Below, piece by piece: positions 1,300 to 64,000 of a stretch of DNA of 64,000 bases (positions are counted from its first letter, which is position 1; the number at the start of each line of letters is the position of its first letter). Position numbers and translations under genes: made by a program. Below the pieces are notes generated by a model. It saw only the letters and a list, made by a program, of their open reading frames with translations, made no database searches and was not told where the DNA came from. Origin of the DNA: Nitrospirota bacterium (GTDB lineage Bacteria; Nitrospirota; Nitrospiria; 2-01-FULL-66-17); assembly GCA_016201825.1 (NCBI GenBank), contig JACQCD010000002.1:2080-66079 (forward strand). Direction: 5' to 3'.

Positions 1300-2058
1300 T
1301 TAGGCCGACCCGCGTGCGCTGGTGACCGGCCACGGCCCACCGCAGCACTTCTTGAACTTCTTCCCGCTCCCGCACGGACACAGGTCATTTCGGCCGACCC
1401 TGGGACGTACCGCCGACTCGGGCTCCGGAGTATCCTGTTCGAGAAGCACCTGAAAGATGGCGCGTCCCAAGTGGGCATATCTGTCCATCGAGTCGGGGAA
1501 GAGCATCACGACCGTTTCGGCGAGACGCTCCAGGCTCGTCTCCTTCTTGGCCTCCTTAAGATAGGCCTGGGCGAGCTTGGGGGACGCAAAAAAGGTGAGG
1601 ACCATCAGGATCGCGCCCAGCTCCTGGTCGAGCTCGGCGGGCGTGCATTCGTCCCAGAGTTCTTCGACATAACCGTGCCCAGCGGCGAACCCTCGCGCCC
1701 ACTGGCTGAGGGGCGCATCGGCATCGAGGTTATCCAGCGGAGTCGTTCGGATCTCGCACTCCGGCGGCAAAGCCGCACTTCCCTCCACCCCTAGGCGGTT
1801 GCACACGTTGAAGAGTGCCATCATCGCCTCAAGGACCTCCATCGCTTCGTCCCGCGTCCCGTAGTTGGCGTCCTGGTCGTCGAACACCATCGGCAACCAC
1901 TCCGAGGGCGGCACCAACTCCGGCGCGCACGCGATGCTGAAGAGAAATCCCGCGAGGTGCGGGTAGGTCATCGTGCCCTTCGGGCGCTGGGTCGCCGCCA
2001 GGAAGCGGCGCAGGAGGGCCGCATGGGCTTTCGTGAATTCGGGGATCGCGTTCATCAT
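1300..2058 (-). CDS. YecA/UPF0149-family protein with C-terminal SEC-C zinc motif
   Basis: The central region has the UPF0149-like [22 protein letters not shown]. The C-terminus [19 protein letters not shown] is a SEC-C metal-binding motif. The start is placed at the internal ATG-ATG (residue 107 of the track ORF, 2058), because the upstream 106 codons encode an asnB-like fragment. Confidence 0.5.
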
Positions 2059-2515
2059 CGCTCGGCCGTCGTCTTGGGGGTTGAGACACGCATCAGGATT
2101 TATTATGAAGCAGCCGCCCGGAATCTCCCGCCAATGGCATCGAGTAAAATCGCACCTGAGCCATGGTGAAAACCAGCCTGGCCCCTTTTCTTTCCCAAAC
2201 AGATGGACGATGACCTCCGTGTCCGTCTGAGTCTTGAGGCGGTGCCCGCGCTCAACAACACGGTCGCCCAATGTTCGATAGTTATATGCTTCCCCGTTAT
2301 AGACGATTCCAACCCGTCCATCTTCGTTATAGATCGGCTGGGCGCCGTCGGTTCGGTCCACGATCGCGAGACGCACGTTCAGGAATCCTCGGTGGCCATC
2401 GAGATGGATCCCCGTCCGGTTCGCGATGCCGGATCGCCTTGGCCATAACGTCGAGGTCGCAACGCTCGACGACCCGGTTCTCGCCTTTATAGATGATTCC
2501 TGCTATTCCACACAT
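2059..2515 (-). pseudogene. Asparagine synthetase (glutamine-hydrolysing) N-terminal GATase fragment, frameshifted and truncated
   Basis: [36 protein letters not shown] (class II glutamine amidotransferase N-terminus) occurs in ORF 2327..2644. After a frame change it continues as [46 protein letters not shown] in the frame of ORF 1300..2376. No synthetase domain follows. Confidence 0.45.
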
Positions 2516-4126: not shown

Positions 4127-4612
4127 ATGAATCGCCGTCAATTCCTCACATACCTCACCGGCCTCTCGGCCCTGCTCATCGGCCGAATCGCATTCGGGCA
4201 GCAGGAGCCGGCGCCGGCCATCGAGAAGATCCACCGCTCCGAGGCCGAGTGGCGGGCCTTGCTCACGCCCGAGCAGTTCCGGGTGATGCGACACGAAGGG
4301 ACCGAGGCTCGCTTTTCCAGCCCGTTGACCCAGAAGACCGAAGCGGGCGAGTATCGCTGCGCGGGGTGTGATTTGACGTTGTTTACGTCGGAGATGAAGT
4401 ACGACAGCAAGACCGGCTGGCCGAGCTTCTTCACCGTCATCCCCGGGCGGGTGGAGACCAGACGAGACTTTGCGCTGCTCTTCCCCCGCACCGAATACCA
4501 CTGCGCGCGCTGCGGGGGGCACCACGGTCATCTCTTTCACGACGGCCCCCGGCCGACCAAGCTGCGCTACTGCAACAACGGCATCGCCCTGCGGTTCGTG
4601 GCCGCGGGCTGA
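4127..4612 (+). CDS. msrB: Peptide-methionine (R)-S-oxide reductase MsrB with twin-arginine signal peptide
   Basis: The N-terminus MNRRQFLTYLTGLSALLIG is a Tat signal. The SelR domain has CAGC...CARCGGHHGHLFHDGP (two CxxC zinc/catalytic motifs). Confidence 0.85.
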   Translation: MNRRQFLTYLTGLSALLIGRIAFGQQEPAPAIEKIHRSEAEWRALLTPEQFRVMRHEGTEARFSSPLTQKTEAGEYRCAGCDLTLFTSEMKYDSKTGWPSFFTVIPGRVETRRDFALLFPRTEYHCARCGGHHGHLFHDGPRPTKLRYCNNGIALRFVAAG

Positions 4613-4895: not shown

Positions 4896-5699
4896 CTACG
4901 ACTTGGCGCAGCGCATACCGGTATCCGCAAAGCCGAACTCCGGCCCGATGTAGAAACGGTGGGCGCTGCGGTAAAAATACGGAAGCGCGTAATGGCCGGT
5001 CCCGCCCCAGCTCGAACCGCGGAGCACCTTGAACTTCCGGCCGAAATCCTTGCTCTCGTACGTGCTGCCGGGGTAGGGTTGGTACCAATCGGCGGTCCAT
5101 TCCCAGACGTTGCCCGCCATGTCGTCGACGCCGTAGGGGCTCTTGCCCTGGGGAAAGCTGCCCACCGCCGCAAGATCGTTCACCCCCGAGCCGCCCGTGT
5201 TCGCTTTCTTTTCGTCGAACTCGTTGCCCCACGGGTACTCGCGGCCGTCGGTCCCCCGGGCGGCCTTCTCCCATTCCGCCTCGGTCGGCAACCGCTTGCC
5301 GGCCCACCGGCAATACAGATCCGCATCGTACCAGTTCACGTTCGTGACCGGATACCGCTCGCGGCCGTTCGGCACGTTGCCGTCGGGCCAGCTCTTGGGC
5401 GGACGCGCCTTGGTCGCCACGACGTACTGGCGGTACTCCGCGTTGGTCACCTCGTAGAGGTCGATCTCATACGCCGGCAGTTCGACCGTCCGCTGCGGGT
5501 GCTCGTCCATGTATAGCGGCTTGGCCATCCCGAACTCGTTGCCCTTACCCTCGGTGTCGACCTTGTCGCTGCCCATCGTGAACGGTCCGGCCGGGATCTT
5601 GACCATGCCGAGGGAAACGGCCCCTTTGTCGCATCCCGCCGCCGTCGCGATGAGGGCCGCCGCGATCACGGCGCCGAGGCATCGGATCCGGCGCCTCAC
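4896..5699 (-). CDS. FGE-sulfatase-family (SUMF1/EgtB/PvdO-type) lipoprotein lacking the FGE catalytic Cys pair
   Basis: The start is reassigned to the GTG at residue 136 of the track ORF. That start overlaps the upstream gene's TGA (GTGA) and is followed by the lipoprotein signal (M)[22 protein letters not shown]. The FGE domain shows [41 protein letters not shown] and GMRCAKS. The N-terminal 135 codons of the track ORF are out-of-frame overlap with the upstream gene. Confidence 0.7.
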   Translation of the reverse strand: MRRRIRCLGAVIAAALIATAAGCDKGAVSLGMVKIPAGPFTMGSDKVDTEGKGNEFGMAKPLYMDEHPQRTVELPAYEIDLYEVTNAEYRQYVVATKARPPKSWPDGNVPNGRERYPVTNVNWYDADLYCRWAGKRLPTEAEWEKAARGTDGREYPWGNEFDEKKANTGGSGVNDLAAVGSFPQGKSPYGVDDMAGNVWEWTADWYQPYPGSTYESKDFGRKFKVLRGSSWGGTGHYALPYFYRSAHRFYIGPEFGFADTGMRCAKS

Positions 5700-6667
5700 T
5701 TGGCGCACCGGAAGCCGAATCCGCTGTTCTTGGTCTCGCGCTTGAAGAAGCCGCGATTGAAGACCGGCGCCGAGAGACCGCAGCGGTAGAACGAGCAGTC
5801 GACGTACGAACCGCCGCGGACGACTTTGTACTGCTCGCCGTAATTGACCGTCGGATGGGTGTTCCCGGGGTACGGCAGGTACCAGCTCTCGGTCCACTCC
5901 CAGACGTTGCCCGAGGCGTCGAACAGACCGTAGGGGCTCTTCCCTTGCGGGAAACTCCCCACCGGCGTCAGGTGCCCGATCCCGCTCTGGGGCGAATTGG
6001 ATTTTTTCGCGTCGAACGTGTCGCCCCACGGGAAGAGCCGGCCATCGGTGCCGCGCGCGGCCTTCTCCCATTCGGCCTCGGTGGGCAGGCGCTTGCCCGC
6101 CCACGCGCAGTACTCGTGCGCGTCGTGCCAGGTGACGTAGACCACCGGGAGCTTCTCGTCGCCCGGGGCGAACGATCCGCCGCGCCAGTGATCCGGCGGG
6201 GGATGCCCGGTCGCTTCGACGAACTTGCGATACGCCTCGTTCGTCACCTCATACTTATCCATCCAGTAAGGATGGTCGATCGTTTCAGTGTGCATCGGCC
6301 CCTCGTCCGGGTGGCGTTTGTCGTAGCCCATGAGGAACGGCCCCGCCGGGATCTGAACCATGTCGACGGTGACGGCCAAGGGCTTGTCGGCCGCCTTGGG
6401 CTTGCGGGGATGCTCGTCGATCGGGGGCAACACGCGCGTGTCCTCGCTCGTCCGCCGCAACTCGTGGCAACTGCCGCAGGTCGCGGCATCGAACGACGCC
6501 TGGTCGGCGGGATGAGTCGGAAGATGGCAGGCGCGACAGGCCTCCTGATCCCACAGGTCGCTCATGCCCGCGTGCGGATCTCCCGCCGCAGACACCCAGC
6601 CGCCACTCCCCATCGCCGCGCAGAACACGACGATCGCCGACACGCGTCGAATCACGTCGGCGAGCAT
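5696..6667 (-). CDS. Diheme c-type cytochrome domain fused to FGE-sulfatase domain (retains FGE-like Cys-x4-Cys pair)
   Basis: A signal peptide [29 protein letters not shown] is followed by CRACH and CGSCH (two CxxCH heme-c motifs). The FGE domain then shows [42 protein letters not shown] (aligning with the FGE GGSxxCHxSYC active-site cysteines) and GFGFRCAK. Confidence 0.7.
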
Positions 6668-11516: not shown

Positions 11517-13696
11517 CACACGCTCCACATCATCGCTTCGAAATTCGCGCCCGGCACCGTAAATGCGCAGGGCCGCTTGGGCGGGTAGTGATCCAGCTCG
11601 ATCCCGCCCTCGAGCACTTCCACCATGAACTCGACCCGCTCGCCCTCCTTAAGATCGAGATCGGCGAACGGCACGGCCAGCTCGACGATCTTGCGGTTCG
11701 CGGCGCGCGCCCGGGTCGGCACGACTTCCCACGAGTCTCCACCGTCGCCGGCGCCCCCTTCCGCGCGGCTCAGCGTACAGGGCACCTCGTCCGCGGCCGC
11801 GAGGGGGAACGTGAGTTTGAACGGGTGGGGAGCCAGGATCCGGCAGCAGCCGAGATACGCCCCGGCCCCATTCGTCAGCGCGGGAGAGGGATCGAGGCGG
11901 AGGTAGAAGTGGTCCCGATCGAACCCGTACCAGATGCCGGTCAGGTACGAGACGGGACAATACATCTGGGCGGCGTCGTTCCGGACCGTGTAATGGCTGG
12001 CGAGCCACCACTCGTAGAACGAGGTGGCGACCCCGTCGATGATCGGCGTGATGAAGCGGACCGGTTCGCGGATCGGCGGCTCTCCGCGATCGAGCTTGAT
12101 CGGTTGCCGCAGGAACGGTGGGACCGTCTCCCCAAGCACTTGGTACACCCGGGACAGGTGACCGCGAAAGATTCGATCGAACTCCGGAGCCAGCACGCTC
12201 GAAAACTCGTCCCCGTACCACCAGAACCAGTCGCTGCCCTCCGCGGCGTACAACGCGTCCCAGGCCTGCTCAATCGCCTCGGGGGATTGTCCGGCGTCGG
12301 CCGCCCGCCCGACCAAAAACTGGCGCGTCCGGCGCAGCGAGGTCCACGCCTGGTTGTCTTCGGAGTGCCCGATCCAGATCCTGAAATTCTGATTGATCCA
12401 CGACCCGCTGTGCAGACGGCTCAGCGACTGGCTGAGCGGGGCGTCGCGGACCGCCTCGCTGAGCGTGGCGGCGACCGCCCCCTGCCGAGCGGCGAGCCGT
12501 TGGTAGACCTGAGAAAGAAACCCTTTTCCACCGTCGGGATACGCTTCCCAGGGATTCTCTCCGTCCAGGATCACGGCGACCAGCGCGGCGCCGGGCTCCC
12601 GCGCGCCGATGGCCTGCGCGCGATCCACGAAATCCCGGGCCGCCGTCTCAGGCACATTTCTCGCGTAGGTGAACCCGATGAGATCCGATAAGGTTCGGTC
12701 CCGGAAGACGACGGCGACTTCGGCGCCGTTGACCGCAACGCGATAGGGCACGTAGGGAGTCGTCACCGCTTCGCCGCCGGACAGCGATCGGGCCAGAACG
12801 CCTTCGTCGGTCGCGATCCAGCGGATGCCCTGCTCGTACACCAGCGGGATGATCTCGGGGGACACCGACCCTTCGGAAGGCCAGAGCCCCGTCGGCCGCC
12901 GGCCGAAGACCCGTTCGTGCAGCGCGAGGCCGCGCACTAACTGCTCACGGGCGTCCTCCGGCACCTCCAGGCGTTGGGGCAGCCGGGCGTCGGGCTGGGC
13001 TCTCAACGCCGAATCGGAATCGACGAGCAGGGGCAGGATCGGATGATAGTACGGGCTGGTGATCAGTTCGATCACCCCGCCCTCCTGCAGCGCGCGGTAA
13101 CGCGGCAGGACTTCCCCCAGCACCGCCGCTTGGGTATCGAGCACCACCCGCTTATCGTCCTCGGTAAACCGTTCGCCCTTGGTCCGCAACTCGTCGATGG
13201 CCGGAAACCTGGCGCGCGCGGCGTGGCCAAACCAGGCGAGATTGAACCACACCTGCAGGTCGAGATAGTCCTGGGTGGAGAATCGGCGCGTCACCGCGGC
13301 CCACTCCATCGGATCGACCGTCATCCCGCGCTTGAGCAGCAGGCTCCAATACCGGGCGGCAGGCTTGATCATTGAATCCCAATGCGCCATGAAGAAATGT
13401 TGGAGCACAAACACGCGATTGTGGGGGGTGAGATCGGCGGCGGGAGTCAGGGTGACGTCGCGGTAGCGGTCGGTCACGCGTCCCTCGACCAGCTCGAGCA
13501 ACTGCGCCGTGAGCGACGGCGTGAAATTGAAGGTCTGCCGGACTTCGGAGAACTCTTCGGCGAGGACGGCCATGTCATAGTACGCTTTGACGCCGTGGAG
13601 CCGCACCCAGGGGAGGGGCGTGGTCATCGTGGCGCGGTCCACGTAATAGGGCTGGTGCATGTGCCAGAGAAAGGCGACGGTCGGTTGCCGGATCAT
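11516..13696 (-). CDS. Glycoside hydrolase family 57 enzyme (alpha-glucan branching enzyme / 4-alpha-glucanotransferase type)
   Basis: AFLWHMHQPYYVD is the GH57 signature. The long catalytic (beta/alpha)7 region carries HFFMAHWD and SPYYHPILPLL. The start is placed at the internal ATG (residue 29); the track maximum is 13780. Confidence 0.75.
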   Translation of the reverse strand: MIRQPTVAFLWHMHQPYYVDRATMTTPLPWVRLHGVKAYYDMAVLAEEFSEVRQTFNFTPSLTAQLLELVEGRVTDRYRDVTLTPAADLTPHNRVFVLQHFFMAHWDSMIKPAARYWSLLLKRGMTVDPMEWAAVTRRFSTQDYLDLQVWFNLAWFGHAARARFPAIDELRTKGERFTEDDKRVVLDTQAAVLGEVLPRYRALQEGGVIELITSPYYHPILPLLVDSDSALRAQPDARLPQRLEVPEDAREQLVRGLALHERVFGRRPTGLWPSEGSVSPEIIPLVYEQGIRWIATDEGVLARSLSGGEAVTTPYVPYRVAVNGAEVAVVFRDRTLSDLIGFTYARNVPETAARDFVDRAQAIGAREPGAALVAVILDGENPWEAYPDGGKGFLSQVYQRLAARQGAVAATLSEAVRDAPLSQSLSRLHSGSWINQNFRIWIGHSEDNQAWTSLRRTRQFLVGRAADAGQSPEAIEQAWDALYAAEGSDWFWWYGDEFSSVLAPEFDRIFRGHLSRVYQVLGETVPPFLRQPIKLDRGEPPIREPVRFITPIIDGVATSFYEWWLASHYTVRNDAAQMYCPVSYLTGIWYGFDRDHFYLRLDPSPALTNGAGAYLGCCRILAPHPFKLTFPLAAADEVPCTLSRAEGGAGDGGDSWEVVPTRARAANRKIVELAVPFADLDLKEGERVEFMVEVLEGGIELDHYPPKRPCAFTVPGANFEAMMWSV

Positions 13697-40621: not shown

Positions 40622-42004
40622 TCAACGATGGGAAACGGCAACACCTGCAATCAATTCCTCGACGCGTTTGTTCGAACTGGCGAAGGGGTCCATGCAGAGG
40701 ATCGTCTCTTCCCAATACCCATTGAGTTTCAAGTATGTCCAGTCGACTGTATACGATCGATTTTTTTCTTTGGCGAACTTGATGAAATCGCCGCGGACTT
40801 TGGCCCGCGTGGACTGGGGGGGGATCGTCATCGCCCGCTGGATCTCGTCTTCGGTCGCCAATCGTTCCACCAAATCCTGGCGCTCCAAGAGATAGTACAG
40901 TCCCCGATTCCGCTTCACATCATGATACTGAAGATCCATTAACGCGATGCGGGGATCATCCCACCCGCAATTCTTCCTGGCGGTGAACGAGTCCATCATG
41001 TTCTTCTTGATGACCCAATCGAGCTCCTGAGCGAGCTTCATGGGATTGGTCGCCAGGGTCTGGAGCACATGTCCCCAGTATTCGATGAGGTCGCGAGTCG
41101 TCTCGTCAGCGCTCGTTCCGAGGGCGGACAGATACGCCTCCGCCCGTTCGTAATAGGTCATCTGAATTTCGAGGGCCGTCAATTCTCGACCGTCCTCCAG
41201 TCGAACGCGCTTTTTTAACGTCGGGTCTCTCGAGATGTCCCGGATAGCCTTCACGGGATCTTCGAGTTCCATGCCCTTGACCGTAAACCCTTCTTCGATC
41301 ATCGACAGCACCACCGCCGTCGTGCCAACTTTCAAATATGTCGTGAGCTCGGACATATTCGAATCCCCGACGATGATGTGCAGCCTCCGATATTTTTCCG
41401 CATCAGCATGCGGTTCATCTCGCGTATTGATAATGCTCCGCGACGACGTGGTCGATGACGACGTCTTCTCGTGGATATGTTGGGCCCGCTGGGAGAGGAA
41501 AAAGTGTGTGCGGCCGGAGACTTTCAACACCTTGCCGGCCCCCGTAAATACCTGACGGGTCACGAAAAATGGGATGAGCTGCTCCGTGATTTTCCAAAAA
41601 TCGAGGTCGCGCCGCATCAAATAATTTTCGTGGCATCCGTAGGTGTTGCCCATGGAGTCCGTGTTGTTCTTAAAGATATAAATATCGCCCACAAGGCCTT
41701 CTTCACGCAAACGCTTTTCAGCCATCGGCAGGCAGGTCTCCAACAACCGTTCACCCGCCTTGTCATGAATCACCAGATCGCGAAGCCGGTCACATTCCGG
41801 AGTGGAGTATTCCGGATGACATCCGGTGTCCTGATAGAATCGCGCGCCGTTAGACAGAAAGGCATTCGAGGGCCAACTGTTTGGGATGAGGCCTTCGAAA
41901 ATATAGCCGAGGATCTTCTCCATCGGGAGATACACTCGGCCGTTCGGAGAGAAAATCAGCCCATATTCGTTTTCGAGGCCGAAGATCCGAGGAGGCATCA
42001 TCAC
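40622..42004 (-). CDS. pafA: Pup--protein ligase PafA
   Basis: [69 protein letters not shown] and a C-terminus YTVDWTYLKLNG...ILCMDPF, collinear with M. tuberculosis PafA. The Dop-specific insertion is absent. Confidence 0.85.
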   Translation of the reverse strand: MMMPPRIFGLENEYGLIFSPNGRVYLPMEKILGYIFEGLIPNSWPSNAFLSNGARFYQDTGCHPEYSTPECDRLRDLVIHDKAGERLLETCLPMAEKRLREEGLVGDIYIFKNNTDSMGNTYGCHENYLMRRDLDFWKITEQLIPFFVTRQVFTGAGKVLKVSGRTHFFLSQRAQHIHEKTSSSTTSSRSIINTRDEPHADAEKYRRLHIIVGDSNMSELTTYLKVGTTAVVLSMIEEGFTVKGMELEDPVKAIRDISRDPTLKKRVRLEDGRELTALEIQMTYYERAEAYLSALGTSADETTRDLIEYWGHVLQTLATNPMKLAQELDWVIKKNMMDSFTARKNCGWDDPRIALMDLQYHDVKRNRGLYYLLERQDLVERLATEDEIQRAMTIPPQSTRAKVRGDFIKFAKEKNRSYTVDWTYLKLNGYWEETILCMDPFASSNKRVEELIAGVAVSHR

Positions 42005-42005
42005 G

Positions 42006-42683
42006 TCACCCGCTGAGCTCGATCAATTCTGCTTGCGATAGGCGTTTAAACTTTCGGCCCGGCCGACGCCGATCGAGCACCGCGATTTCCATGTTCTGCA
42101 GTAGAAGCCCTTGATGGCCCACACTTTCCAAGGCCTCCAAACCCTCTTTGAGAGCGGCCGGGAGCGGCCGACGGCCATCAACGTGTTGTTTAAGATGCGT
42201 CATAATGGCTTCTGACCGGCCTCCGATCACCGCGACCAGCCGTTCGTCAAAGATACTGCCGTCAAAAGAGATGCGGTACATTTCGTTCGTGTCGTGTTCA
42301 CCGAGCCCGACGACGAGAATCTCCACCTCCAGCGGTTTGATCTCCTGACTGAAGATGGTACCCAGACTCTGGGAATAGGCGTTCGCCAACGATTTGGTCG
42401 TCACGTCCTCCCGGCTGTAGAGGTACCCCTTCATGTCGGCGTGCCGAATGCCGGCCTTCCGAAGATTTTCAAACTCGCTGTACTTTCCCGCTCCGGCAAA
42501 TGCAATGTGATCATAAATTTCCGAGATCTTGTTGAGCGACACGCTGGGGTTGTCCGCCATCAGAACCAATCCGTGCTCGTACTCCATCGCCACGGTCGAG
42601 CGCCCTCGGGCAATGCCCTTTTTGGCGTACTCGGCCTTGTCCTGCATGATGAGCTCGGGCGACACGTAGTAGGGTAACGCCAT
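42006..42683 (-). CDS. prcA: Proteasome alpha subunit
   Basis: MALPYYVSPELIMQDKAEYAKKGIARGRSTVAMEY...AFAGAGKYSEFENLRKAGIRHADMKGY, collinear with actinobacterial PrcA. Confidence 0.85.
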   Translation of the reverse strand: MALPYYVSPELIMQDKAEYAKKGIARGRSTVAMEYEHGLVLMADNPSVSLNKISEIYDHIAFAGAGKYSEFENLRKAGIRHADMKGYLYSREDVTTKSLANAYSQSLGTIFSQEIKPLEVEILVVGLGEHDTNEMYRISFDGSIFDERLVAVIGGRSEAIMTHLKQHVDGRRPLPAALKEGLEALESVGHQGLLLQNMEIAVLDRRRPGRKFKRLSQAELIELSG

Positions 42684-43498
42684 TATCGCTCCCGCCGCTT
42701 CTCTAAGAAGGCCGCATAAAACGGCTCAATCCGCTCGGTCGTGACGTCGACGATTCCTCCTGCGGTCACGGTTTTCACCGTCGGATAGATCCCGCGTGTG
42801 GGGTCTGGCCCCCCGGTGGCCACGTCCTCTTCCGCCGCGTTGAACAACGCCTCGAGAGCAAGCCCGATCGCATCGTGCTCAGGTAATCCCGGTTTATAGT
42901 ACTGTTTGATGGCCGTCTTAGCGTCTTTTCCCCCGGACCCGGTGGCGTGGTAGTCGGCTTCTTCGTACCGTCCGCCTGCCACGTCGTATTTGAAGATCCG
43001 CCCCTCCCCCTGGCGAGAATCATATCCCGCGAAGATCGGGATCACCACCAATCCCTGAAACGCCGCCGGCAGATTCCCCTTAACCATTTGGGCCAGTTTA
43101 TTCGCCTTGCCATCGACGGAGAGCGGAGTGCCCTCGAGTTTTTCGTAATGCTCTAATTCGGTTTGGAACAAGCGGACCATATCGAGACAGGGACCGGCCG
43201 CGCCGGCGATCGCCATTGCAGACCATTCGTCGACCTTGTAGACTTTCTCGATACGACGGCCCGAGATTTGATACCCCTCGGTAGCCCTTCGGTCTCCGGC
43301 AATCACCACCCCTGCGCTGTACCGGAGCGCCAGAATGGTCGTGCCGTGGGGGATCGACAGGGCGACAGAGGGCGAAACGGCGACTGACGAACCGGGCATC
43401 TGAGCAACGTGGCGGTTGGGACTGAGGTGTGGATAGTGGGTGATCAGGAGATTGTAAAAACTTGACCCAAGCGGATCAGGGTCTGAGATCACCGTCAC
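42683..43498 (-). CDS. prcB: Proteasome beta subunit (propeptide plus Thr1 nucleophile)
   Basis: A propeptide, then HG/TTILAL (Thr1), GDRRATEG, and a conserved Lys33 / GSGG context (ATGSGGKDA). Confidence 0.85.
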   Translation of the reverse strand: MTVISDPDPLGSSFYNLLITHYPHLSPNRHVAQMPGSSVAVSPSVALSIPHGTTILALRYSAGVVIAGDRRATEGYQISGRRIEKVYKVDEWSAMAIAGAAGPCLDMVRLFQTELEHYEKLEGTPLSVDGKANKLAQMVKGNLPAAFQGLVVIPIFAGYDSRQGEGRIFKYDVAGGRYEEADYHATGSGGKDAKTAIKQYYKPGLPEHDAIGLALEALFNAAEEDVATGGPDPTRGIYPTVKTVTAGGIVDVTTERIEPFYAAFLEKRRER

Positions 43499-43692
43499 TC
43501 TCCCCCTTTTTGGACGTAATTTTTCACGAACTCTTCGGCATTTTCTTCCAACACTTCGTCGATTTCGTCAAGCAGTTTATCGATGTTCTCTTTGATCTTC
43601 TTCCCTTTTTCGAGAACTTCGGGGTTGGGAGTTGCCGCCGCGTCGTCACGTCGCCCGACTTTTTTGAGATCTCGTTTTTTGTCCTGTGACAT
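43495..43692 (-). CDS. pup: Prokaryotic ubiquitin-like protein Pup (C-terminal Gly-Gly-Glu)
   Basis: 66 aa MSQDKKRDLKKVGRRDDAAATPNPEVLEKGKKIKENIDKLLDEIDEVLEENAEEFVKNYVQKGGE. GGGGGG lies 8 nt upstream of this ATG. The C-terminal helix region is Pup-like and the protein ends in GGE. Confidence 0.8.
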   Translation of the reverse strand: MSQDKKRDLKKVGRRDDAAATPNPEVLEKGKKIKENIDKLLDEIDEVLEENAEEFVKNYVQKGGE

Positions 43693-43761
43693 CGTCATCA
43701 CCCCCCTTGGCTGCGCCCAGACACAAACAGATGCGTTCCAACCCCGCGTCAATAGCCGGTA

Positions 43762-45240
43762 TTAGGCACTCAGGCGGGACACCAGCGACTCCACGGTGTC
43801 CGATTCGTCCAATAACCCTCCCACTAACTCCTTGGTGCCGCGGGCTGGCTCGTTGAGGGGAATCCGCTTCACCACCGCTTGTCCTACGTCGAACAAGATC
43901 GACGCCCAACTCGCGGCGTAGATTTGGTCGGGGAATTTCTCCAGACACCGTCCTCGGAAGTATGCACGGGTATCGGACGGCGGAGCGACCATCGCCTCAT
44001 CGACCGCCTCCGGATCGAGCAGTCGATCCACGTAACCGCCCTTTTCGAGGGCCGAGAACAACCCTTTCTCGGGCCGCAAATCGTGGTACTGCAGATCCAT
44101 CATCGCAATTCTGGAATCGGTCCACTTGCAGCCTTTACGGTCGATATACGACTGCAGGAGGTCTCGTTTGATGACCCAATCGATCTCCCGCGACAACTGC
44201 GATGGATCGCGAGCGAGCAGATCGAGCACGCGCTCCCACCGCGCCAGGATATCCCTGGTTTCGGGATCCGCTCCACGCTCCGCACAATATCGATGCGCGG
44301 TTTCCAGATAATATTCCTGAATCTGCACGGCGGTCCACTGCCGGCCATCTTCCATTGCAATGGGCTGCTTTAAGGACAGGTCGCGCGACACATCTTTTAT
44401 CGCATGCACCGCATCGGCCAATTTCAGCTCCTTGACCGGATACCCCGCCTCGATCATCGACACGACGAGAGCGGTTACCCCCAGCTTGAGGTATGTCGTG
44501 ACTTCCGACATATTGGCGTCCCCCACGATGACGTGGAACCGCCGATATTTGGTCTTGTCGGCATGGGGCTCGTCTCTCGTATTGATGATGGGACGTTTCA
44601 CCATGGTGTTGAGGTCCACCAAGACCTCAACAAAGTCGGCGCGCTGGGAGATCTGGTACTGAGCAGGATTCGCCCGATTCTCCGCCCCGACCTTGCCGGC
44701 TCCGGCGTAAATCTGCCTCGTGACAAAAAACGGGATCAACTGCGTCACGAGCCGCATGAAGGGAACGGATCGCGACACGAGATAATTCTCGTGATAACCG
44801 TAACTGTTCCCCTTCCCATCGGTATTGTTCTTGTAAATCACGAACCGATGTTCCCCCGCCGTACGTTCTGCCCCAACGCGGCACGCCTCCAAAATACGTT
44901 CGCCGGCCTTTTCATAACGCACCACGTCTCGAACACTCGCGCACTCTGGGGTGGAATACTCGGGGTGCGCACCGTCCACGTACAAGCGCCCCCCGTTCCC
45001 GAGCAACTTGTTCAGCAATCGATTGTAATCCGGAGCTGGACGCTCCTTTTCCCCCTCCACTTCAAAACCTCGGGCATCAACTAACGGGTTTTCATTCTCG
45101 TAGTCCCAGAGAGTATTTCTGGACGGAACCGCGTCCACGCTGTTAACAAGCAAAATGGCGTTGGATACCGGGTCCTGGGCCGCGGCATCCTTGACCGCCA
45201 CCCCGAATTCCGTCTCGGTTCCGAGAATACGAGGGGTCAT
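43762..45240 (-). CDS. dop: Pup deamidase/depupylase Dop
   Basis: GTETEFG, plus the Dop-specific ~40-residue insertion ([22 protein letters not shown]...). Also [44 protein letters not shown] and [11 protein letters not shown], collinear with M. tuberculosis Dop. Confidence 0.85.
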
Positions 45241-46985
45241 AAATAGTGCCCGGTCGTCACGGTTTCGATCTTACGGGACTCGGTCACGCGACTGGTGATG
45301 GTGCGCACGTGCACAATTTTCTCGCTCTTCCGTCCGGCAATCTTGGCCCAATCGTCGGGGTTCGTTGTATTCGGAAGATCCTCGTGCTCTCGAAACTCAT
45401 CGCGCACGGCCTTGGACAGATCCTCGGCTCGGATGCCGCGTTCGCCTCCCCCTATCGCGCGTTTGATCGCGTATTTCTTTGCCCGAGCCACGACGCCCTC
45501 AATCAGCGCACCGCTCGCAAAGTCCTTGAAGTACAAGATCTCTTTCTCACCGTTGGCATAGGTGACTTCCAGGAATTTATTGTCCTCGCTCGCGCTATAC
45601 ATCTGATCGACGACCTCAGCAATCAGGTTCGGCACCACCTCGTCCACCCCCCGGCCCTCGGGCAGACTGTAGGGAAGGTCCAGAGACAAATACTTGCCGA
45701 AGATCTCTTTGGCCGCCCGGCGATCGGGGCGGTCGATCCGAATCTTGACGTCGAGACGGCCCGGGCGGAGGACGGCTGGGTCAATCAGATCTTGGCGATT
45801 ACTCGCGCCGATCACGATGACATTCCGAAGGCGTTCCACGCCGTCGATCTCAGCCAGGAATTGAGGAACGATAGTCGACTCCACATCCGACGAGATCCCG
45901 GTCCCCCGCGTGCGGAACAGAGAGTCCATTTCGTCAAAGAAGACGATGACCGGCATCCCCTCCTGGGCTTTATCCTTGGCCTTCTTGAACACTTCGCGGA
46001 TCTGACGTTCGCTTTCTCCCACATACTTGTTGAGCAACTCGGGCCCCTTGACGTGGAGAAAGAAGCTTTTCACTTCCCGCCCCGTCAGGTGGCCGAGTTT
46101 CTTCGCTATGGAGTTGGCCACCGCTTTCGCGATCAGCGTTTTCCCACATCCAGGCGGACCGTATAAGAGAATGCCCTTGGGAGGAGAAAGGTGGTACTCC
46201 GCAAAGAGGTCCCGATGGAGGAACGGCAACTCGACCGCGTCGCGGATCTGTTCGATCTGATCCTCGAGCCCACCGACCTGCTCATAGGTCACGTCGGGCA
46301 CTTCCTCCAGAACGAGTTCTTCGACCTCCGACTTCGGGAGCTTTTCCAGCACATAGCCCGACCGCGTGTCGAACAGCAGATGGTCCCCCACGCTCAACCG
46401 CTCGTCCCTCAGAGAAGCCGCGACCTCGGCCACACGCTCTTCGTCGGCTCGCAACATAATAATCGCGCGATGGTCATCCAAAAGGTCTTTCAGCTTGACG
46501 ACTTCTCCCTGGACCTCAAACGCCTTCACCTCTACGACGTTGAGGGCTTCGTTAAGAATAAGCTGCTGGCCCTTTCGGAGGTCCGTCGCCTTAAGATTCG
46601 GATGAAGATTCACCTTCATCTTCCGGCCCGCGACATAGATATTGACAGTCCCGTCCTCATTGAGGTCGGAAAACACCGCATACGAAGACGGCGGCGCCGT
46701 CAGCTTTTCGACCTCGAGCTTGAGCGCTTCGATCTGCTCTCGCGCTTCCTGAAGGGCTGCGATCAGTTTTTCATTATGTCGATGGACTTGCTCCAAGCGA
46801 TCCCGGGACTGCTCAGTCTCGCGGAACTCTTCCTCCATCGACCGGATCTGAATCTGGAGCTTCTCGATCTCCCTACGGTATATCAAGGGCTCATCAGAGT
46901 CATTCCCCGCCAACTGATCCTGCAATTTTCTAATGGTGGTTTTTAAGGAATTGAGCTTGCCTGACTGGCGCTTCGACTCGCTCAT
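45237..46985 (-). CDS. arc: Proteasome-associated AAA ATPase ARC/Mpa
   Basis: An N-terminal coiled coil, OB domains, an AAA module [22 protein letters not shown] (Walker A) and a C-terminus ...TVTTGHYL (penultimate Tyr for gate opening). Confidence 0.85.
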
Positions 46986-47042: not shown

Positions 47043-47714
47043 TCAATTGTAACACCGCCGGAAACTCGGGTCAACCGCTCGGCTTCCTTCCGACGCGGAG
47101 ACGGTGGCGACACACGCCCGCGCAGCCGACTGAATATCCCGAGCAGCTATGATCTCGGAGATCACGGCGACGCCATGAGCACCGGCGCCCATCACGGCTG
47201 CAATCCTGTCACGGGTGATCCCCCCCAGAGCGAAGACCGGAACCCCACTGTGTCGACACGCCTCAGCAAGCGCGCCCACCCCGACGGGCGGGCAGTATCG
47301 TATCTTCGACGGGGTCTCAAACACCGGGCCGAACGTCACGAAATCGGCGCCCTCGTCCGCCGCGCGCCACACCGCCTCAATCGAATGCGTCGAGACCCCG
47401 ATCAGTTTCCCTGGGCCAAGAATGCGGCGTACCGCCCTCGTCGGCAAACTGTCGGCCCGAAGGTGGACGCCGTCGGCGTCCACCGCCAGCATAACATCGA
47501 TGCGATCGTTAATCAGTAGGACGGCGCGCGCACTGTTCGTGAGAGCGCGAACTTCGGCGGCGAGTTCGAGGAGCGCCCGAGGGGCGAGGTCCTTCTCGCG
47601 CAACTGAATCGCGCGAACTCCTCCTCGCAACGCATCGGCCACCGTCTCGGGCAGCTGGCGTTGGCCGGCGAGATGGCGATCTGTGATCAGATAGAGCAAC
47701 CAATCGGGCGTCAT
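47043..47714 (-). CDS. thiE: Thiamine-phosphate synthase
   Basis: LYLITDRHL...IQLREKDL...DGVHLRADS...GVSTHS...GADFVTFGPVFETPSK, a canonical ThiE. Confidence 0.8.
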   Translation of the reverse strand: MTPDWLLYLITDRHLAGQRQLPETVADALRGGVRAIQLREKDLAPRALLELAAEVRALTNSARAVLLINDRIDVMLAVDADGVHLRADSLPTRAVRRILGPGKLIGVSTHSIEAVWRAADEGADFVTFGPVFETPSKIRYCPPVGVGALAEACRHSGVPVFALGGITRDRIAAVMGAGAHGVAVISEIIAARDIQSAARACVATVSASEGSRAVDPSFRRCYN

Positions 47715-47803: not shown

Positions 47804-48880
47804 TTACTCGATCAAATCCTCCAGAGGACTTGACGCATTGGCATAGAGCCTCTTGGGAATTCGGCCCGCGCGATACGCGAGTCGTCCCGCCCGAACCGCA
47901 TCCCGCATGGCTTCCGCCATCATGAGCGGATCTTTGGCGCCCGCGATGGCGGTGTTCATCAACACGCCGCCACAGCCCAGTTCCATGGCAACGGCAGCGT
48001 CCGACGCCGTCCCGACTCCCGCATCCACGATGACCGGGACCTTGACCGTCTCCATGATAATCCGGAGATTATAGGGGTTACGGATCCCCAGGCCCGATCC
48101 GATCGGTGCGGCCAACGGCATCACCGCCGCACATCCGACATCTTCAAGTTTTTTGGCCACGATCGGATCGTCCGTGGTGTAGGGCAGAACGACGAAACCT
48201 TCCTTGACCAAGATTTTGGCCGCCTGCAGCAAGGCCTCGGTGTCGGGAAACAGCGTCCGCTGATCACCGATCACTTCCAGCTTGACCAAATCAGACACCC
48301 CGGCCGACCGCGCAAGCCGCGCGGTCCGAACAGCCTCTTCGGCGGTATAGCATCCTGCGGTATTCGGAAGAATTCGATAGACCTTGGGGTCAAGATAATC
48401 CAGCAGATTGTCGCTGGACCGATCGAGAATATTGACCCTCCGCACGGCGACGGTAACCATGTCGGCCCCTGAGGCGTCGATCACTCGTTTGGTTTCAGCG
48501 AAATCTTTAAATTTCCCCGTCCCGACGATCAGCCGAGATCTGAGATCCAGAGGGCCAATGCGTAGGCAATCCTCACCCCCGCCCCCCCCGACAAAACTGA
48601 CAATCTCGACGCGATCTCCCTCCTCAAGGGCTTTCCCGGCAAACGCGCTGCGCTCGATCACCGACAGATTCACCTCCACGGCAACCCGGTCCGGAATGAC
48701 TCCGAGATTGGCCAGCAGTTGGCCGATGGTCGTGCCTCGCGCCAGCGCGGATGCCTCTCCGTTGACCGTGACCACTACGTGAGCAACACCACTCGATCGC
48801 ACCGTCACCCTCCCACTCGGCTGCCCGAATCGGCAACGCTCAGTAAAACGATTATAACGAGCGCTGGAAAATGAAGTCAA
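47804..48880 (-). CDS. thiG: ThiS-ThiG fusion (sulfur-carrier domain plus thiazole synthase)
   Basis: N-terminal ThiS: [45 protein letters not shown]...[12 protein letters not shown]. Then ThiG: [19 protein letters not shown]...[15 protein letters not shown]...[14 protein letters not shown]. The track start is a TTG; the real start is probably an internal GTG near residue 32-37. Confidence 0.75.
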
Positions 48881-49214: not shown

Positions 49215-50030
49215 TTACCGCCGGGGCGCAATGACCGTTTCAGCGGAATACGGGCTTTCGCAGCCACGGGCATCCACCGCCGTGACCCGGTAGGTCATCG
49301 CCCCTTTCGCATCAAGCCCGGTGTCCACGTAACTTGTCGCGCTTTGGGGGGAGGGGGTCACCCGAACTCGACCACGGTCATCTTCGCGATAGAGATGGTA
49401 CCGGAGCCCCGGATCCCTAGGTCCTGACCACGCTAGGTACACACTGGCCCGCCCTTGGCGGGGGCTCCACAGGTTGAACGGCGGAGGAGGCGGCGTTGCG
49501 GTCGGCATGGACGATGCGGTGACAATGAACCGGTGAGGGGTCCCCACGTGGTTCGTAAAAGAGTACGGCGACGGCGAGGCCGCCAGGTCATACGTCTGGC
49601 CGGTCAGAGCGTCCTGGAGCGTCCAGGCAACCTGCGCGCACTGGGCGGCAACGGTGGAGGGGGGCGTCCACGACAACGAGATCGCAGCGTCCGCCTGATC
49701 CGACGTCACCTCGATGTCCCACACCTGAGGAAAGGTGTCGCCACGCACATCCCACCACAGCGATTGCCGGCCGGCGGGATAGCTTGGGTGTCGGATCACC
49801 GCGGTCAACACGTCGGACGGAAACGCGGCCACCGCGTCCCACGAGGTATCGAAATTATCCGTGCCACCCGGTTCGACTCCGAGGCGCAAATGGTTCTGCG
49901 CCATCCCCCCTTCGGCGGCCTGCGAGGGAACCGAGACCGTCAGATCGATTTCCGAGGCGTGCGCCGGGAGCGCCATCATGCCACACCCCGCCATCAACAC
50001 CGCGCCCACCCATGCTCTCCGTGACTTCAC
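49215..50030 (-). CDS. Secreted protein with C-terminal fibronectin type III domain
   Basis: A GTG start 4 nt after AGGAGG, with the RBS overlapping the stop of the giant gene. The signal peptide is KSRRAWVGAVLMAGCGMMALPAHA. The C-terminal FN3-like region runs PPPFNLWSPRQGRASVYLAWSGP...YHLYRED...YVDTGLDAKGAMTYRVTAVD. Confidence 0.5.
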   Translation of the reverse strand: MKSRRAWVGAVLMAGCGMMALPAHASEIDLTVSVPSQAAEGGMAQNHLRLGVEPGGTDNFDTSWDAVAAFPSDVLTAVIRHPSYPAGRQSLWWDVRGDTFPQVWDIEVTSDQADAAISLSWTPPSTVAAQCAQVAWTLQDALTGQTYDLAASPSPYSFTNHVGTPHRFIVTASSMPTATPPPPPFNLWSPRQGRASVYLAWSGPRDPGLRYHLYREDDRGRVRVTPSPQSATSYVDTGLDAKGAMTYRVTAVDARGCESPYSAETVIAPRR

Positions 50031-50039
50031 GATGCCTCC

Positions 50040-53000
50040 TTAGGGACGGGTGAACACGAGCACGGCATCCGACCCGAAACTCTGGACCCATGCTCCGTTC
50101 CACGGCTTGAACGTCGCCGGTGGACTGGTCGAGAGTCCGTACGGTTGCGTCGTCACCCCGTCATACAGATAGATCGCCGGGCCGACCCAGCCGTTTGTCA
50201 CCGCATTCTGATACGGCACCGGCGCTCCGGCCCCACGTTTGACCTGAACCTGGCTCAACAGAATATCCTGCTCGTACGGGTTCCCGACCATGTTGAATCC
50301 CAACTCGAGCGGCACATCAAAGGTCGGACTAGAGACCACCGGACCTGGCGCGTCCAAGACCGCCTGCGTGCCCAGGGAGCGAAGAAAATACGCTGATCCG
50401 GCGTGGATCGGACCAAGAACCCCGCACGGGGAAAACGCGGGCGTTGACACCGTCCCCTCGTAGCACCCGTCGGTCGGAAGGGGGCCGGACGGATTCCAAC
50501 GGTAGGCGTACACGGGAATCCCGACATCGTCGCCGAACACTCCATCGGCCGTGTCGCTGCCGACCACGGGAATCCGGGGAACCGACACCATGGTATAGCC
50601 GAGTCGCAATGCCGTCCGTCCCACGGCCACGTTCGACAAGCCCGATCGATTGCCTCCATCGTCGATGGCTTGGATCGCGAAGTAATAATTTGTATTCGAG
50701 GTCAGCCCACCCACGAGTACTTGCTGCGCCTGGCCGGAAGGACCGGGAGCAGCCGCCGCCATAACCGTTCCCTGGCTGAAATTAACCGATGTGAGGGGGA
50801 ATGTTGCGTAGCGTACGTCGTACGCCGCGGCGGTTCCGACCGAGCCGTCGTCGCCGGTTGCCGTCCACGTGAGCAAGAGCGACGCGCCCTTCGCCGCGCC
50901 GGAGAACACGGCCAGATCCGTGATCACGGCCGGGGCAATTGTGTCTGCGGACGGAGGGGCGGTTGAGGCGTCTAAAACATTCGACACCGTACCAAGCTGA
51001 CTGAACGCGTCCATGGCCCTCACCGCCACGTGGTAGGTCGTCCCCGGAACGAGGCCGTCGATGACCAGGCTTGCCGTCGTCCCGCTGCTCTGGGGAGTGT
51101 GGAGCGTGTACGGCGTCGCCGTGTCGAAATTGAAGGGGGTCGAGGTCGAGTATCGCACCAGGTAGCCGGCCAGCGGGCCCGAGTCGTCGACGGGAACGGT
51201 CCATTGAACACTCACGGTATTCGCCGTGGGCGCCGCGGCGCCAGGTCGGAGGTCGGCAATCGCCGGCGGGGGTTGATCAACTGGGGTTGTCACCGTCACC
51301 GGCGCCGACCACCCCGACGCATTCGGAATTTCATCCAACGCCCGGAGCTCAAACACGTAGGTGTTGCCTCCGCGCAGCGTGGAGACCGTCAGCGTTTCGG
51401 TTCCACCGGGAGTCTTGGTGGGGGTGATCGCTTGTACACTCGTAACTGTTCCGAGTGTGCGGCGCAACTCGTATCGGCCGACCATCCCCCCGGCTAACCC
51501 ATCGTCCCCAACCGCCGTCCACGTGAAGCTCACGGATATCGGCGTGGGCGCGCCTGCCACCAACGCTGGCGTCGCGGGAGGCGTGGTGTCGGCCGTCACC
51601 GGCGGCGGGGTGATCCCGGGACCCGCTCCACTCGAGTGTTGCGCCAAGCTCACGGCGACCGCGCGACCGGCGACCAGCGTATTTCGGGATAGCACGGCAT
51701 CGAACGCCGACACCAGACCGGAGCCGCTCGCTTGCGCCTCAAGGGCGGTCGCGGCGTCCCAGGCGGTTCCCGTCCACCGTGTGAGCGTGACACGACCCTG
51801 CGTGTCGAACACGCTGAGCGCCAAGCCGTCGGTCCCGCGGGCGGACGCGAGCTCGATCCACGCCGGGTATGGGGTGAAACTCACTGCTGCTCCCGCAGCG
51901 TGGCTAGCGGCAGATGTCCCGAGAGTACCACGAGTCAGACCCGACAGGATCGTCACCGTGCCTATCCCACTCGGCATCTGGCACGAGGTCGTGGTTTCGG
52001 CCTTGCTGGTATACCGAATGGTCTCGACATCCACCGCGACAAGGCCCGAGAACGGGAACGCGATGTCGTTACAAATGGACAGCGCTGTTCCGGACGCCAA
52101 TACAGCGGAATCGAGCTTCGCCGCCAACACCGTCGTCGGCAGCGGCGACGGGATGGGGGACTCAGCCGACCAGCCCCCGGCGGACGACCACGCCCGCGAG
52201 GCGCCGCGCTGGCCGGCCTGAGTGGTGTACGCGGCCAACAGCTCCCCGCTCGTTCCCTCCCACGCGAGATCAAAGCTCCGGCCACCGGCCTCGCTCATCA
52301 GACTCGTGGTCAAGGTGTCGGCGGTCGCCGACCATTGCGCCCCGTCCCAGATCAGGACATTGAGCGCCAACGCCGATGTCCCGCTGCTTGCGGCCAGCGC
52401 AATGCGATTTGAGGTCGCGGAGAGATCGCCCACCAGTCGGAGGGCCGTGAGGGGACCGCTCCCCGCAGACGGCGTCGTGCCTTCGACGCCCCATCCGCCG
52501 ATGTCCGCTAGATCCCGACTCCACACGCGGTAGTGCGGCGTGCTTTCTCCTGCTGCTGCCCACGCGGCCATCATCCTTCCCGTCACCCGTTCGAACGCAA
52601 CATCGACGATTGGCGCGTCGTGACCTGCCGCGTTGGTGGTCAACAGGACGGAGTCTTCCCACGCCTGGCGACTGCCTCGCCAGACCACCGCGGCGACGTC
52701 GTCGTTCTGGTCTTCGTAGACAAGAACCATGTCGTTCGTCGCCGGGCGTGCCTCAAGGCGAACCCACAGCGGTCGGCCCGTGGTCTGTTGGCCGTTGACC
52801 AGATCCTCGACCAGCGCTTCGGCGCTCCAGCTTGCGCCGTCCCATATGCGATAGCGCAGCGAGGTGGAGTCAGTTCGCGCGTAGACGACCACAGCGTGTC
52901 CGGTCTGCTGCTCGTACGCCACGTCCACGGCCTGCGTGGGCCGCGCCAGCCCGACCGACGACGTGGCCTCGATCGCGCCGGTCCACACCTGGCCGTTCCA

Positions 53001-56573: not shown

Positions 56574-56706
56574 CCGCCCCTCCTTAAAAAAAAGAGTAGT
56601 GATGACCGGGGATGACACGAATCCCCTCTGCCTTAGACCTGGACGGGCGCGATTTATTCCGATTTTGCGCGTGCGGCGCTCAAAGCCCGGAACAGGATCG
56701 GCCGCC

Positions 56707-56736
56707 ACTATATCGGTGATATTTCAAGGCTGTCAA
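56707..56736 (-). promoter_or_regulatory. Candidate sigma70-type promoter for the giant gene (-35 TTGACA, 18-nt spacer, -10 TATAGT)
   Basis: The minus-strand reading is cTTGACAgccttgaaatatcaccgaTATAGTggc. It lies between the DUF3105 stop (56748) and the giant-gene start (56573), implying a ~125-nt leader. Confidence 0.35.
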
Positions 56737-56747
56737 GCGCAGCGTGC

Positions 56748-57281
56748 TTACGGCCGTGCACGCTCTTTGGACGCCCCCTCCGGTTCCGACGGTGGATGGT
56801 GATCCTGGCCGCGGTAGGCCTCGATAAATCGGCGGACCAGCCCTTCGTCCCAGGATTCTATCGTCGCGATCCGACCCCACGCCGTGAGCGCGAAGGCGCT
56901 GGACAGGCTGGGCTCAGGGGTCACAAGAACCTGGGTGGGATACTCGGTGAGAAGGCGCTCAAGGGCCGTCATCGTCTCGGGACACGGGCGATCGCAGCGA
57001 TAGTGGATGATGATCCCGCCGTCCTCAAGGTTATGGACCTGCACCTCCCACAACACCGGGATCCGGTGCATCCCCCACGGCGCCAACCACGGAACGTGGG
57101 GACCGGAAGTCGGGGGCAGAGAATGATACGGGGTATGCGGAGATCCCGGCGACTGGAGATGATCGTTGCCTTGAAGCGGGACCGCGCGGCCCGGCTCGTC
57201 GCCGGACACGCTCGCCTGGACGGGGACGGCCCAGCATAACCCCGCCGCAAGCCACGCCAAGCCGTTCCCATTGAGGCGCAT
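56748..57281 (-). CDS. Secreted DUF3105-domain protein
   Basis: A signal peptide MRLNGNGLAWLAAGLCWAVPVQA. The DUF3105 core runs PPTSGPHVPWLAPWGM...VHNLEDGGIIIHYRCD...VLVTPEPSLSSAFALTAWGRIATIESWDEGLVRRFIEAYRG. Confidence 0.55.
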   Translation of the reverse strand: MRLNGNGLAWLAAGLCWAVPVQASVSGDEPGRAVPLQGNDHLQSPGSPHTPYHSLPPTSGPHVPWLAPWGMHRIPVLWEVQVHNLEDGGIIIHYRCDRPCPETMTALERLLTEYPTQVLVTPEPSLSSAFALTAWGRIATIESWDEGLVRRFIEAYRGQDHHPPSEPEGASKERARP

Positions 57282-57372
57282 AGGGGTTTTATCCTACGGC
57301 TGACCCCACCACCAAGTCAATCCGGGCCGTGTCGCCTTGACAGGCTGGAGAGGTTTCAGTAGAGTACGGCCC

Positions 57373-63949: not shown

Positions 63950-64000
63950 CGGCTCTTAACGGCGCACGTGTCGGGCCGGCAGTTTAAGGAGATCCGGTTT

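Follow-up and report, generated by a model that had tools for sequence, protein, structure and literature searches.

Cytochrome-linked FGE-fold proteins in a Nitrospirota genome: a predicted di-haem fusion with a lipoprotein partner and an array behind an 11-haem cytochrome gene

A 64,000-nucleotide stretch of a Nitrospirota genome (the window; contig JACQCD010000002.1 of assembly GCA_016201825.1, 62.5% G+C) carries five genes for proteins of the formylglycine-generating enzyme (FGE) superfamily, which we call F1 to F5. An earlier note on this DNA had described the five copies together, as paralogues in two tandem arrays. They are not one system: alignments with orthologues and the identities among the paralogues divide them into three old subfamilies and two independent modules. 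In module A (F2/F1), F2 joins a predicted exported di-haem cytochrome c region to an FGE domain and is encoded beside a lipoprotein paralogue, F1. In module B (F5–F4–F3), three paralogues follow a gene that in relatives encodes an 11-haem cytochrome c. Both modules are tied to c-type cytochromes and neither is tied to sulfatases, which suggests a periplasmic redox role rather than a role in sulfatase maturation. Close homologues of these proteins stem from metagenome-assembled genomes (MAGs) of uncultured Nitrospirota and Nitrospiria, and the di-haem/FGE fusion occurs in lithotrophic Nitrospirota, Gammaproteobacteria and Deltaproteobacteria. Few branches of the FGE superfamily have a known function.

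F2 (5696–6667, minus strand; ATG start, 323 amino acids) has a Sec signal followed by two haem-binding motifs that the earlier note did not mention: CRACH at residues 44–48 (6524–6538, minus strand) and CGSCH at residues 64–68 (6464–6478, minus strand). The six CXXCH residues (C44, C47 and H48; C64, C67 and H68) do not vary in any of 62 aligned homologues, the most distant of which are 45% identical, whereas the other N-terminal sequence cannot be aligned. The two motifs are spaced by 20 residues in most members and are followed by a variable linker of 31–71 residues. Weak Pfam matches to Cytochrome_C7 and MtrC-type families at residues 30–77 fall below the cut-offs. With its export signal and two CXXCH motifs, the N terminus of F2 classifies as a predicted c-type cytochrome, and from the motifs we infer that haem is attached. 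Among the 120 best F2 homologues, 115 have the F2-type active-site loop described below and 81 have two CXXCH motifs; 31 have none, about half of which are shortened gene calls.

The FGE domain of F2 (residues 101–323; Pfam E value of 1.3e-59) contains a Cys-x4-Cys loop, C291-SFYR-C296 (5780–5797, minus strand), within the F2-type sequence GGS(W/Y)xDCxFY(R/K)CG(I/L)SAPxFNR. Its C291, Y294, C296, G297, N304 and R305 do not vary among the 62 homologues. In the 1y1e alignment, numbered as chain index + 72, E140, W256 and S287 of F2 correspond to E130, W299 and S333 of human FGE, so that all three are retained. In an AlphaFold2 model, the FGE domain has a predicted local distance difference test score above 90 and the haem region is disordered. 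Foldseek matches this model to FGE, SUMF2, CalU17 and ToxD with a probability of 1.0, and it is about equally near to CalU17, ToxD and FGEs (28–33% identity). The cysteine loop of F2 sits between the same strands as the human FGE loop that holds C336 and C341.

Several of these features would suit a genuine FGE that matures cysteine-type sulfatases, with the cysteine-less copies acting as regulators in the manner of SUMF2. F2 shares with the copper-dependent oxidases of the SUMF1/bacterial FGE type the fold, the signature block, the glutamate, tryptophan and serine equivalents and a C-terminal loop in which two cysteines are spaced by five residues; SUMF1 and SUMF2 are its best solved relatives, and the public annotation reads ‘formylglycine-generating enzyme family protein’. 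We nevertheless regard this explanation as quite improbable. F2 is only about 30% identical to solved FGEs, is exported and is fused to haem sites, and its loop is unlike the CxxxxCxRYR of FGEs, with no cysteine placed at C336 by alignment. The sulfatase context is also missing: Pfam finds no sulfatase domain (PF00884) that could mark a CxPxR-type substrate among the sizeable open reading frames (ORFs) of the 64-kb window, and the gene calls of the F2 loci L001–L005 include no sulfatase either. Applied to these proteins, the public label ‘formylglycine-generating enzyme required for sulfatase activity’ appears misleading. The earlier note had set F2 apart from four cysteine-less copies; F2 does have a cysteine pair, but it is no ordinary FGE, being a predicted periplasmic di-haem cytochrome fusion.

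The partner of F2, F1 (4896–5699, minus strand; GTG start, 267 amino acids; Pfam E value of 2e-57), is a predicted lipoprotein without a cysteine pair. It belongs to a ‘GHY’ subfamily with the loop GSSWGGxGHYAxxxFYRxxxRF and an insertion, DTEGKxxEFGxxKPxYxDEHP, both of which were recognized by alignment with orthologues. The GHY...FYR loop recurs in 109 of the 118 best F1 homologues, and most of these have lipoboxes. An F1-type gene lies directly downstream of F2, overlapping it by 1–4 nucleotides or separated from it by no more than 18, in the window, in L001, L002 and L005 (Nitrospirota) and in L003 and L007 (Gammaproteobacteria). The same pairing is found in another MAG, in which the two proteins have neighbouring accession numbers (MFZ5875970/71). 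In L008, the F1-type gene is 1.6 kb downstream of F2 with one gene between them, and in L004 F2 is adjoined by a second F2-type gene. Because the genes on either side (SerRS, Rho, L31 and others) vary by lineage, it is the F2/F1 pair itself that is conserved as a unit. In L003, L007 and L008, F2 also has monohaem cytochrome c genes next to it.

Convergent with F1 in the window is a gene (4127–4612, plus strand) for an MsrB (SelR) protein with a twin-arginine (Tat) signal, MNRRQFLTYL..., which is predicted to be periplasmic. A conserved link between F1 and this Tat-exported MsrB was ruled out, as the adjacency is missing in the close relative L001.

Module B comprises F5 (63152–63949; ATG start, 265 amino acids; Pfam E value of 8.5e-63), F4 (62389–63162; GTG start, 257 amino acids; 9.7e-60) and F3 (61566–62375; ATG start, 269 amino acids; 2.7e-56), all on the minus strand. 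The cytochrome gene ahead of this array runs off the window, and the earlier note could not see it; its 3′ end occupies positions 63956–64000 (minus strand). These last 45 nucleotides encode ..KPDLLKLPARHVRR and a stop codon, compared with ..LKPPARHAQR and a stop codon at the C terminus of the cytochrome in the related locus L086, and match the C terminus of a cytochrome c of about 1,100 amino acids with 11 CXXCH motifs in relatives. The junction between the cytochrome gene and F5, CGTTAAGAGCCGATGGAC, is identical in the window and in L086, with the stop codon 6 nucleotides before the start of F5. Together, the 45 nucleotides and the identical junction indicate that the window array is the tail of the same operon as in the relatives.

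In every orthologous locus examined (F5 identities of 92, 77, 61 and 56%), F5 begins 0–8 nucleotides past, or slightly overlaps, a gene for a cytochrome c of 922–1,106 amino acids, and one or two further FGE-like genes come after it. The cytochromes upstream of F5 in L086–L088 each contain 11 CXXCH motifs. On the P0137 contig, only the cytochrome gene and three FGE genes are kept, which makes these the tightest unit. The link is specific to the F5 clade, because, of 160 generic FGE loci covering 1.37 Mb, just one contains an ORF with at least three haem motifs. This background set was taken from genome and metagenome scans that are dominated by the EWEKAARG motif and yielded relatives at most 48% identical among the matches listed; we used it as background and not as a set of orthologues. 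The single positive locus, L054 (3–1516), is from a Nitrospira MAG and has a four-haem ORF directly after an FGE-like gene; it may be a further, independent link between an FGE-like protein and a cytochrome.

Upstream of the cytochrome gene, L086, L088 and L090 encode two NHL propellers, a SurA-like peptidyl-prolyl isomerase (PPIase), two small multihaem cytochromes and an unannotated protein of 616–628 amino acids. In L086, the protein of this class has a signal sequence, many segments of alternating hydrophobicity and a C-terminal phenylalanine (...ARPF), and is probably an outer-membrane beta-barrel. By its make-up, this gene set resembles the undecahaem electron transfer (uet) cluster of Tenderiales, in which an 11-haem cytochrome is likewise accompanied by proteins of these kinds, the likely beta-barrel included. 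The Tenderiales cluster has been proposed to serve extracellular electron uptake.

The same gene order raises the question of whether the FGE-like proteins help to mature multihaem cytochromes or to control their quality, handling apocytochrome cysteines or copper during assembly, rather than serving as stable subunits. The array lies directly after the cytochrome gene, which is the position of ccsAB after uetJ in Tenderiales; a PPIase chaperone is encoded in the same cluster, and F2 has thiol and redox features. We nonetheless think this improbable, as the active-site loops of F3–F5 have no redox-active or metal-binding residues and the F2/F1 pair adjoins no multihaem gene.

In the window, the other side of the array borders a neighbourhood of giant surface-protein genes, and the earlier note had suggested that non-catalytic FGE-like domains may bind or modify envelope proteins. 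On this view, the five proteins would be lectin-like modules that act on the giant proteins without being enzymes. Between the array and a giant fibronectin type III (fn3) gene lie a CRTAC1-like FG-GAP/ASPIC-UnbV lipoprotein gene (59579–61447, minus strand), two PD40 beta-propeller paralogues (57337–58344 and 58553–59491, plus strand) and a gene for a DUF3105 protein (56748–57281, minus strand), none of which is a conserved neighbour of the array in relatives. The fn3 gene (50040–56708, minus strand) encodes 2,222 amino acids, probably a giant surface protein, and includes, at 54850–56444, a tandem array of four to five units of about 330 nucleotides (110 amino acids) each; another fn3 protein is encoded after it, at 49215–50030. 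With its C-type-lectin-like architecture, the FGE fold serves as a binding scaffold in Tsi3 and in systems of diversity-generating retroelements (DGRs) and biological conflict, which would agree with a binding role, as would the neighbouring CRTAC1-like, PD40 and fn3 genes. The only parallel among the related loci is L090, in which a TIG/fn3 giant of more than 4,000 amino acids is encoded directly after the array. PD40, ASPIC and giant genes are not beside the arrays in L086, L087, L088 and P0137; the expected link to PD40, CRTAC1 and IPT genes is therefore not borne out by comparative genomics, and the conserved partner, present each time, is the 11-haem cytochrome c. The lectin-like explanation also leaves the haem sites and the invariant cysteine pair of F2 unaccounted for, and we consider it unlikely.

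The strand, starts, stops and lengths of the five ORFs are as given in the earlier note, and the three tight junctions that it described are present: a GTGA overlap of the F1 start and the F2 stop at 5696–5699, an 11-nucleotide overlap of F5 and F4, and a 13-nucleotide gap between the F4 stop and the F3 start, which contains a strong ribosome-binding site of the AGGAG type. These junctions fit the co-expression that was read from them. The F2/F1 overlap is kept in relatives; the F5/F4 overlap is not. Promoter and terminator scans gave no usable result.

Export signals are conserved beyond the window. F1, F3 and F4 have lipoboxes (AAGC with Cys23, SGAC and LVAC, respectively) and F2 has its Sec signal. 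LAGC/LAAC-type lipoboxes are retained in F1 orthologues. In the F3 and F4 orthologues, the open frame upstream of the public start sites encodes lipoprotein signals that differ in sequence (LSGC, LLSC, AVSC and LVGC); LSGC and LLSC belong to F4 orthologues, and the F3 orthologue in L088 retains AVSC together with the same C-terminal insertion, which is 12 residues long in F3. Wrong choice of start codon, which the earlier note had named as a possible source of artefact, therefore does not explain the signal peptides: the lipoboxes of the F3 and F4 orthologues lie upstream of miscalled public starts, and those of F1 are retained. The public calls for the F4 and F3 orthologues in L087 (5400–5687) and L088 (10799–11061 and 12089–12304) begin at internal methionines and lose the signal peptides, so that automated annotation makes these proteins look cytoplasmic. 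F5 is the copy for which the claim of five signal peptides needs amendment. Its N-terminal hydrophobic helix has no cysteine and no obvious cleavage site, and the same helix without a cysteine is found in its orthologues; it is more likely to be an uncleaved membrane anchor.

The classification of the five proteins as members of the FGE superfamily is solid. All five match Pfam FGE-sulfatase (PF03781) end to end, with E values of 2.7e-56 to 8.5e-63, scores of 191–213 bits against a cut-off of 23.3 and coverage of profile positions 2–4 to 255. The nearest solved structures are SUMF2 and SUMF1 (E values of about 1e-30 to 1e-33). As the earlier note had expected, no characterized subfamily accommodates them, because they fall below every equivalog cut-off of NCBIfam: EgtB (115–131 bits versus 360), SenA (107–118 versus 420), PorK/GldK (65–94 versus 350), PvdO (55–79 versus 500), OvoA (48–54 versus 400) and GldJ (at most 43 versus 458). 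In addition, Pfam finds in none of the five the DinB_2 domain that is the hallmark of EgtB, OvoA and SenA. The superfamily is large, with about 244,000 clusters at 50% identity in a profile search, and many of its proteins carry 2–18 FGE domains; the best matches in a profile search of the representative library are mostly giants with multiple FGE domains. Tandem FGE genes are also widespread, occurring in 19 of the 160 unrelated generic loci.

The block that the earlier note had singled out as nearly invariant is indeed present in all five copies, but it is a superfamily-wide signature that human SUMF1 and SUMF2 have too. Gene conversion was considered as its cause and ruled out, as third-codon identity within the block is only 8–13 of 20 positions and the paralogues are 54–60% identical in DNA (43–53% in protein). 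Because the third-codon positions of the block are saturated, selection rather than gene conversion maintains it. Judged by this divergence, the five genes are ancient paralogues held by selection, and neither recent duplicates nor products of gene conversion.

Four of the five copies were said to lack the catalytic cysteines and hence not to be true FGEs, and the active-site loops bear this out: those of F1, F3, F4 and F5 contain no cysteine at all and so lack the copper-binding cysteines of the SUMF1 type. The glutamate of the YEVTN motif (equivalent to human E130) is retained in all five. The W299 equivalent is retained in F1, F2 and F3 and is replaced by methionine in F4 and alanine in F5; the S333 equivalent is retained in F1–F3 and is alanine in F4 and F5. 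Correspondingly, F5 has GGAW and NVAEWT in place of GGS and NVWEWT, and F4 has GGAW and NVMEWT at the same motifs. F3, F4 and F5 are of a short-loop type in the alignment with orthologues. Across 30 F5-family sequences, the positions of C167 (KCN) and C197 (DLCGNV) are either both cysteine or both alanine, a covariation that suggests a periplasmic disulfide between them.

The hypothesis that we put forward, with somewhat less than even confidence, is that F2 is a haem-supplied periplasmic redox enzyme with F1, whose gene is translationally coupled to that of F2, as its partner, and that F3–F5 are non-catalytic adaptors of the large cytochrome. The fold, the subfamilies, the motifs, the export signals and the linkage of the genes are shown by the analysis, whereas the attachment of haem, the binding of metals and partners, the direction in which electrons flow and the substrate are inferred. 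The oxidation of a substrate thiol by FGEs depends on O2 and requires two additional electrons. In F2, a small di-haem c module, joined by a flexible linker of about 30–70 residues, would exchange electrons with the FGE domain, in which the invariant Cys-x4-Cys loop could be a Cu(I)-binding or redox-active dithiol site. By analogy with FGE, the two haems could supply the two extra electrons and would themselves be fed by soluble periplasmic cytochromes. The cysteine-less lipoprotein F1 would be non-catalytic and would tether or regulate F2, in analogy to SUMF2 with SUMF1. The membrane-anchored F5 and the lipoproteins F4 and F3, which have lost catalytic residues, would most likely be adaptors or scaffolds: they would bind the 11-haem cytochrome in a uet-like porin–cytochrome conduit and tether it, or the conduit, to membranes, much as the FGE-fold lipoprotein PorK has a structural part in type IX secretion.

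A number of observations weigh against this hypothesis. Pairing is not universal: F2 has no F1 partner in L006, L009 and L010, and an F1-type gene occurs without F2 in the 4.6-Mb genome of Ca. Manganitrophus, where the upstream ORF encodes a histidine kinase. About 12 F2-type proteins have a signal peptide yet no haem module, and no distal ligand is invariant in the small haem module of F2. When F2 is aligned with human FGE by HMMER or globally with BLOSUM, C291 falls on C341 and C296 on C346, by way of a shared CxxYRC, and the two do not fall on the C336/C341 pair; a count of loop lengths through SUMF2 favours instead the register in which C291 and C296 correspond to C336 and C341. Because the pairwise alignments place the two cysteines off C336/C341, an FGE-equivalent copper site in F2 stays putative. 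Finally, the published uet cluster has no FGE genes and continues with ccsAB after the 11-haem gene, whereas two or three FGE-like genes follow that gene here.

If the cytochrome links are functional, module B provides testable candidates for new electron-conduit subunits or maturation factors in uncultured Nitrospirota, and F2 provides a model of electron supply to FGE-type oxidases outside the cytoplasm. A bolder form of our hypothesis is that F2-type proteins are widespread, self-contained periplasmic oxidases of a haem-plus-copper or haem-plus-dithiol kind, which would use O2 to oxidize a cysteine or another thiol of an exported substrate with their own haems as the reductant, and that the cysteine-less paralogues are tethers of cytochromes for extracellular electron transfer. 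We see this as a long shot. Were it true that F2 is a haem-fed oxidase, it would suggest what reduces FGEs under physiological conditions and would be a new way to couple the respiratory cytochrome pool to protein modification.

The fold, the superfamily and cysteine-less periplasmic members of it (SUMF2, PvdO, PorK/GldK and Tsi3) are already known. In the open-access literature, we found no description of a fusion of a di-haem cytochrome with FGE and a lipoprotein partner, or of a cytochrome-linked cysteine-less clade, and no relevant paper in which cytochromes, Nitrospira or electron transfer are connected to FGE-like proteins.

Of the known members, SUMF2 (pFGE) offers the closest precedent for F1: it is an FGE paralogue without the cysteines, resident in the endoplasmic reticulum of eukaryotes and reported to bind and modulate SUMF1. 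SUMF2 is the best solved match of F2 and F5, its loop has the length of that of F2, and it lacks the catalytic cysteine pair, as do F1 and F3–F5. The adjacency of the F1 gene to that of the cysteine-containing F2 suggests a similar pairing, although F1, unlike SUMF2, is lipid-anchored and has a distinctive conserved loop, GHY...FYR. PorK/GldK and GldJ are non-catalytic FGE-fold lipoproteins of the outer membrane that build the ring of the type IX secretion machinery, and a structural role of this kind is what we propose for F3, F4 and F5; however, they match at E values of only about 1e-13 to 1e-14 in the Protein Data Bank, versus 1e-30 to 1e-33 for SUMF2, and the window contains no type IX secretion genes. 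PvdO is a periplasmic FGE-fold protein without the cysteine pair that acts in a periplasmic oxidation, the last oxidation step of pyoverdine, but no pyoverdine (pvd) genes are present. The window also has no nirK, the copper nitrite reductase gene with which the FGE-like protein NirV is encoded.

Tsi3 and the ‘FGS’ domains of DGR and conflict systems show the FGE fold as a pure binding module, and the five proteins might on this ground be hypervariable DGR targets or components of toxin immunity or defence; the variable proteins of TvpA-type DGRs and Tsi3 immunity proteins share the fold. In L088, an Avd-like gene (23S_rRNA_IVP / bAvd; 11832–12164, 110 amino acids) lies between the F4 and F3 orthologues, with no reverse transcriptase called at the locus. 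Avd-like proteins accompany DGRs, which often target FGE-fold proteins. The window argues strongly against such a role, which we consider highly improbable. It has no pair of template and variable repeats and no inverted repeats, and the sole repeats among the genes are the paralogous cores, which are 62–75% identical. No reverse transcriptase, type VI secretion or NTPase genes were found among the scanned ORFs of the window, and PADLOC returned no matches. The C termini are well kept among orthologues.

Elsewhere, the window carries housekeeping genes. A complete Pup-proteasome cluster (40622–46985, minus strand) comprises two Pup-ligase family genes, the proteasome alpha and beta subunits and an Mpa/ARC AAA ATPase, and fits the Nitrospirota origin. 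A fused ThiS–ThiG thiazole synthase gene (47804–48880, minus strand) adjoins one for thiamine-phosphate synthase (47043–47714). One predicted ORF (1300–2376, minus strand) has an odd combination of an N-terminal glutamine amidotransferase fragment, a UPF0149 region and a C-terminal SEC-C motif.

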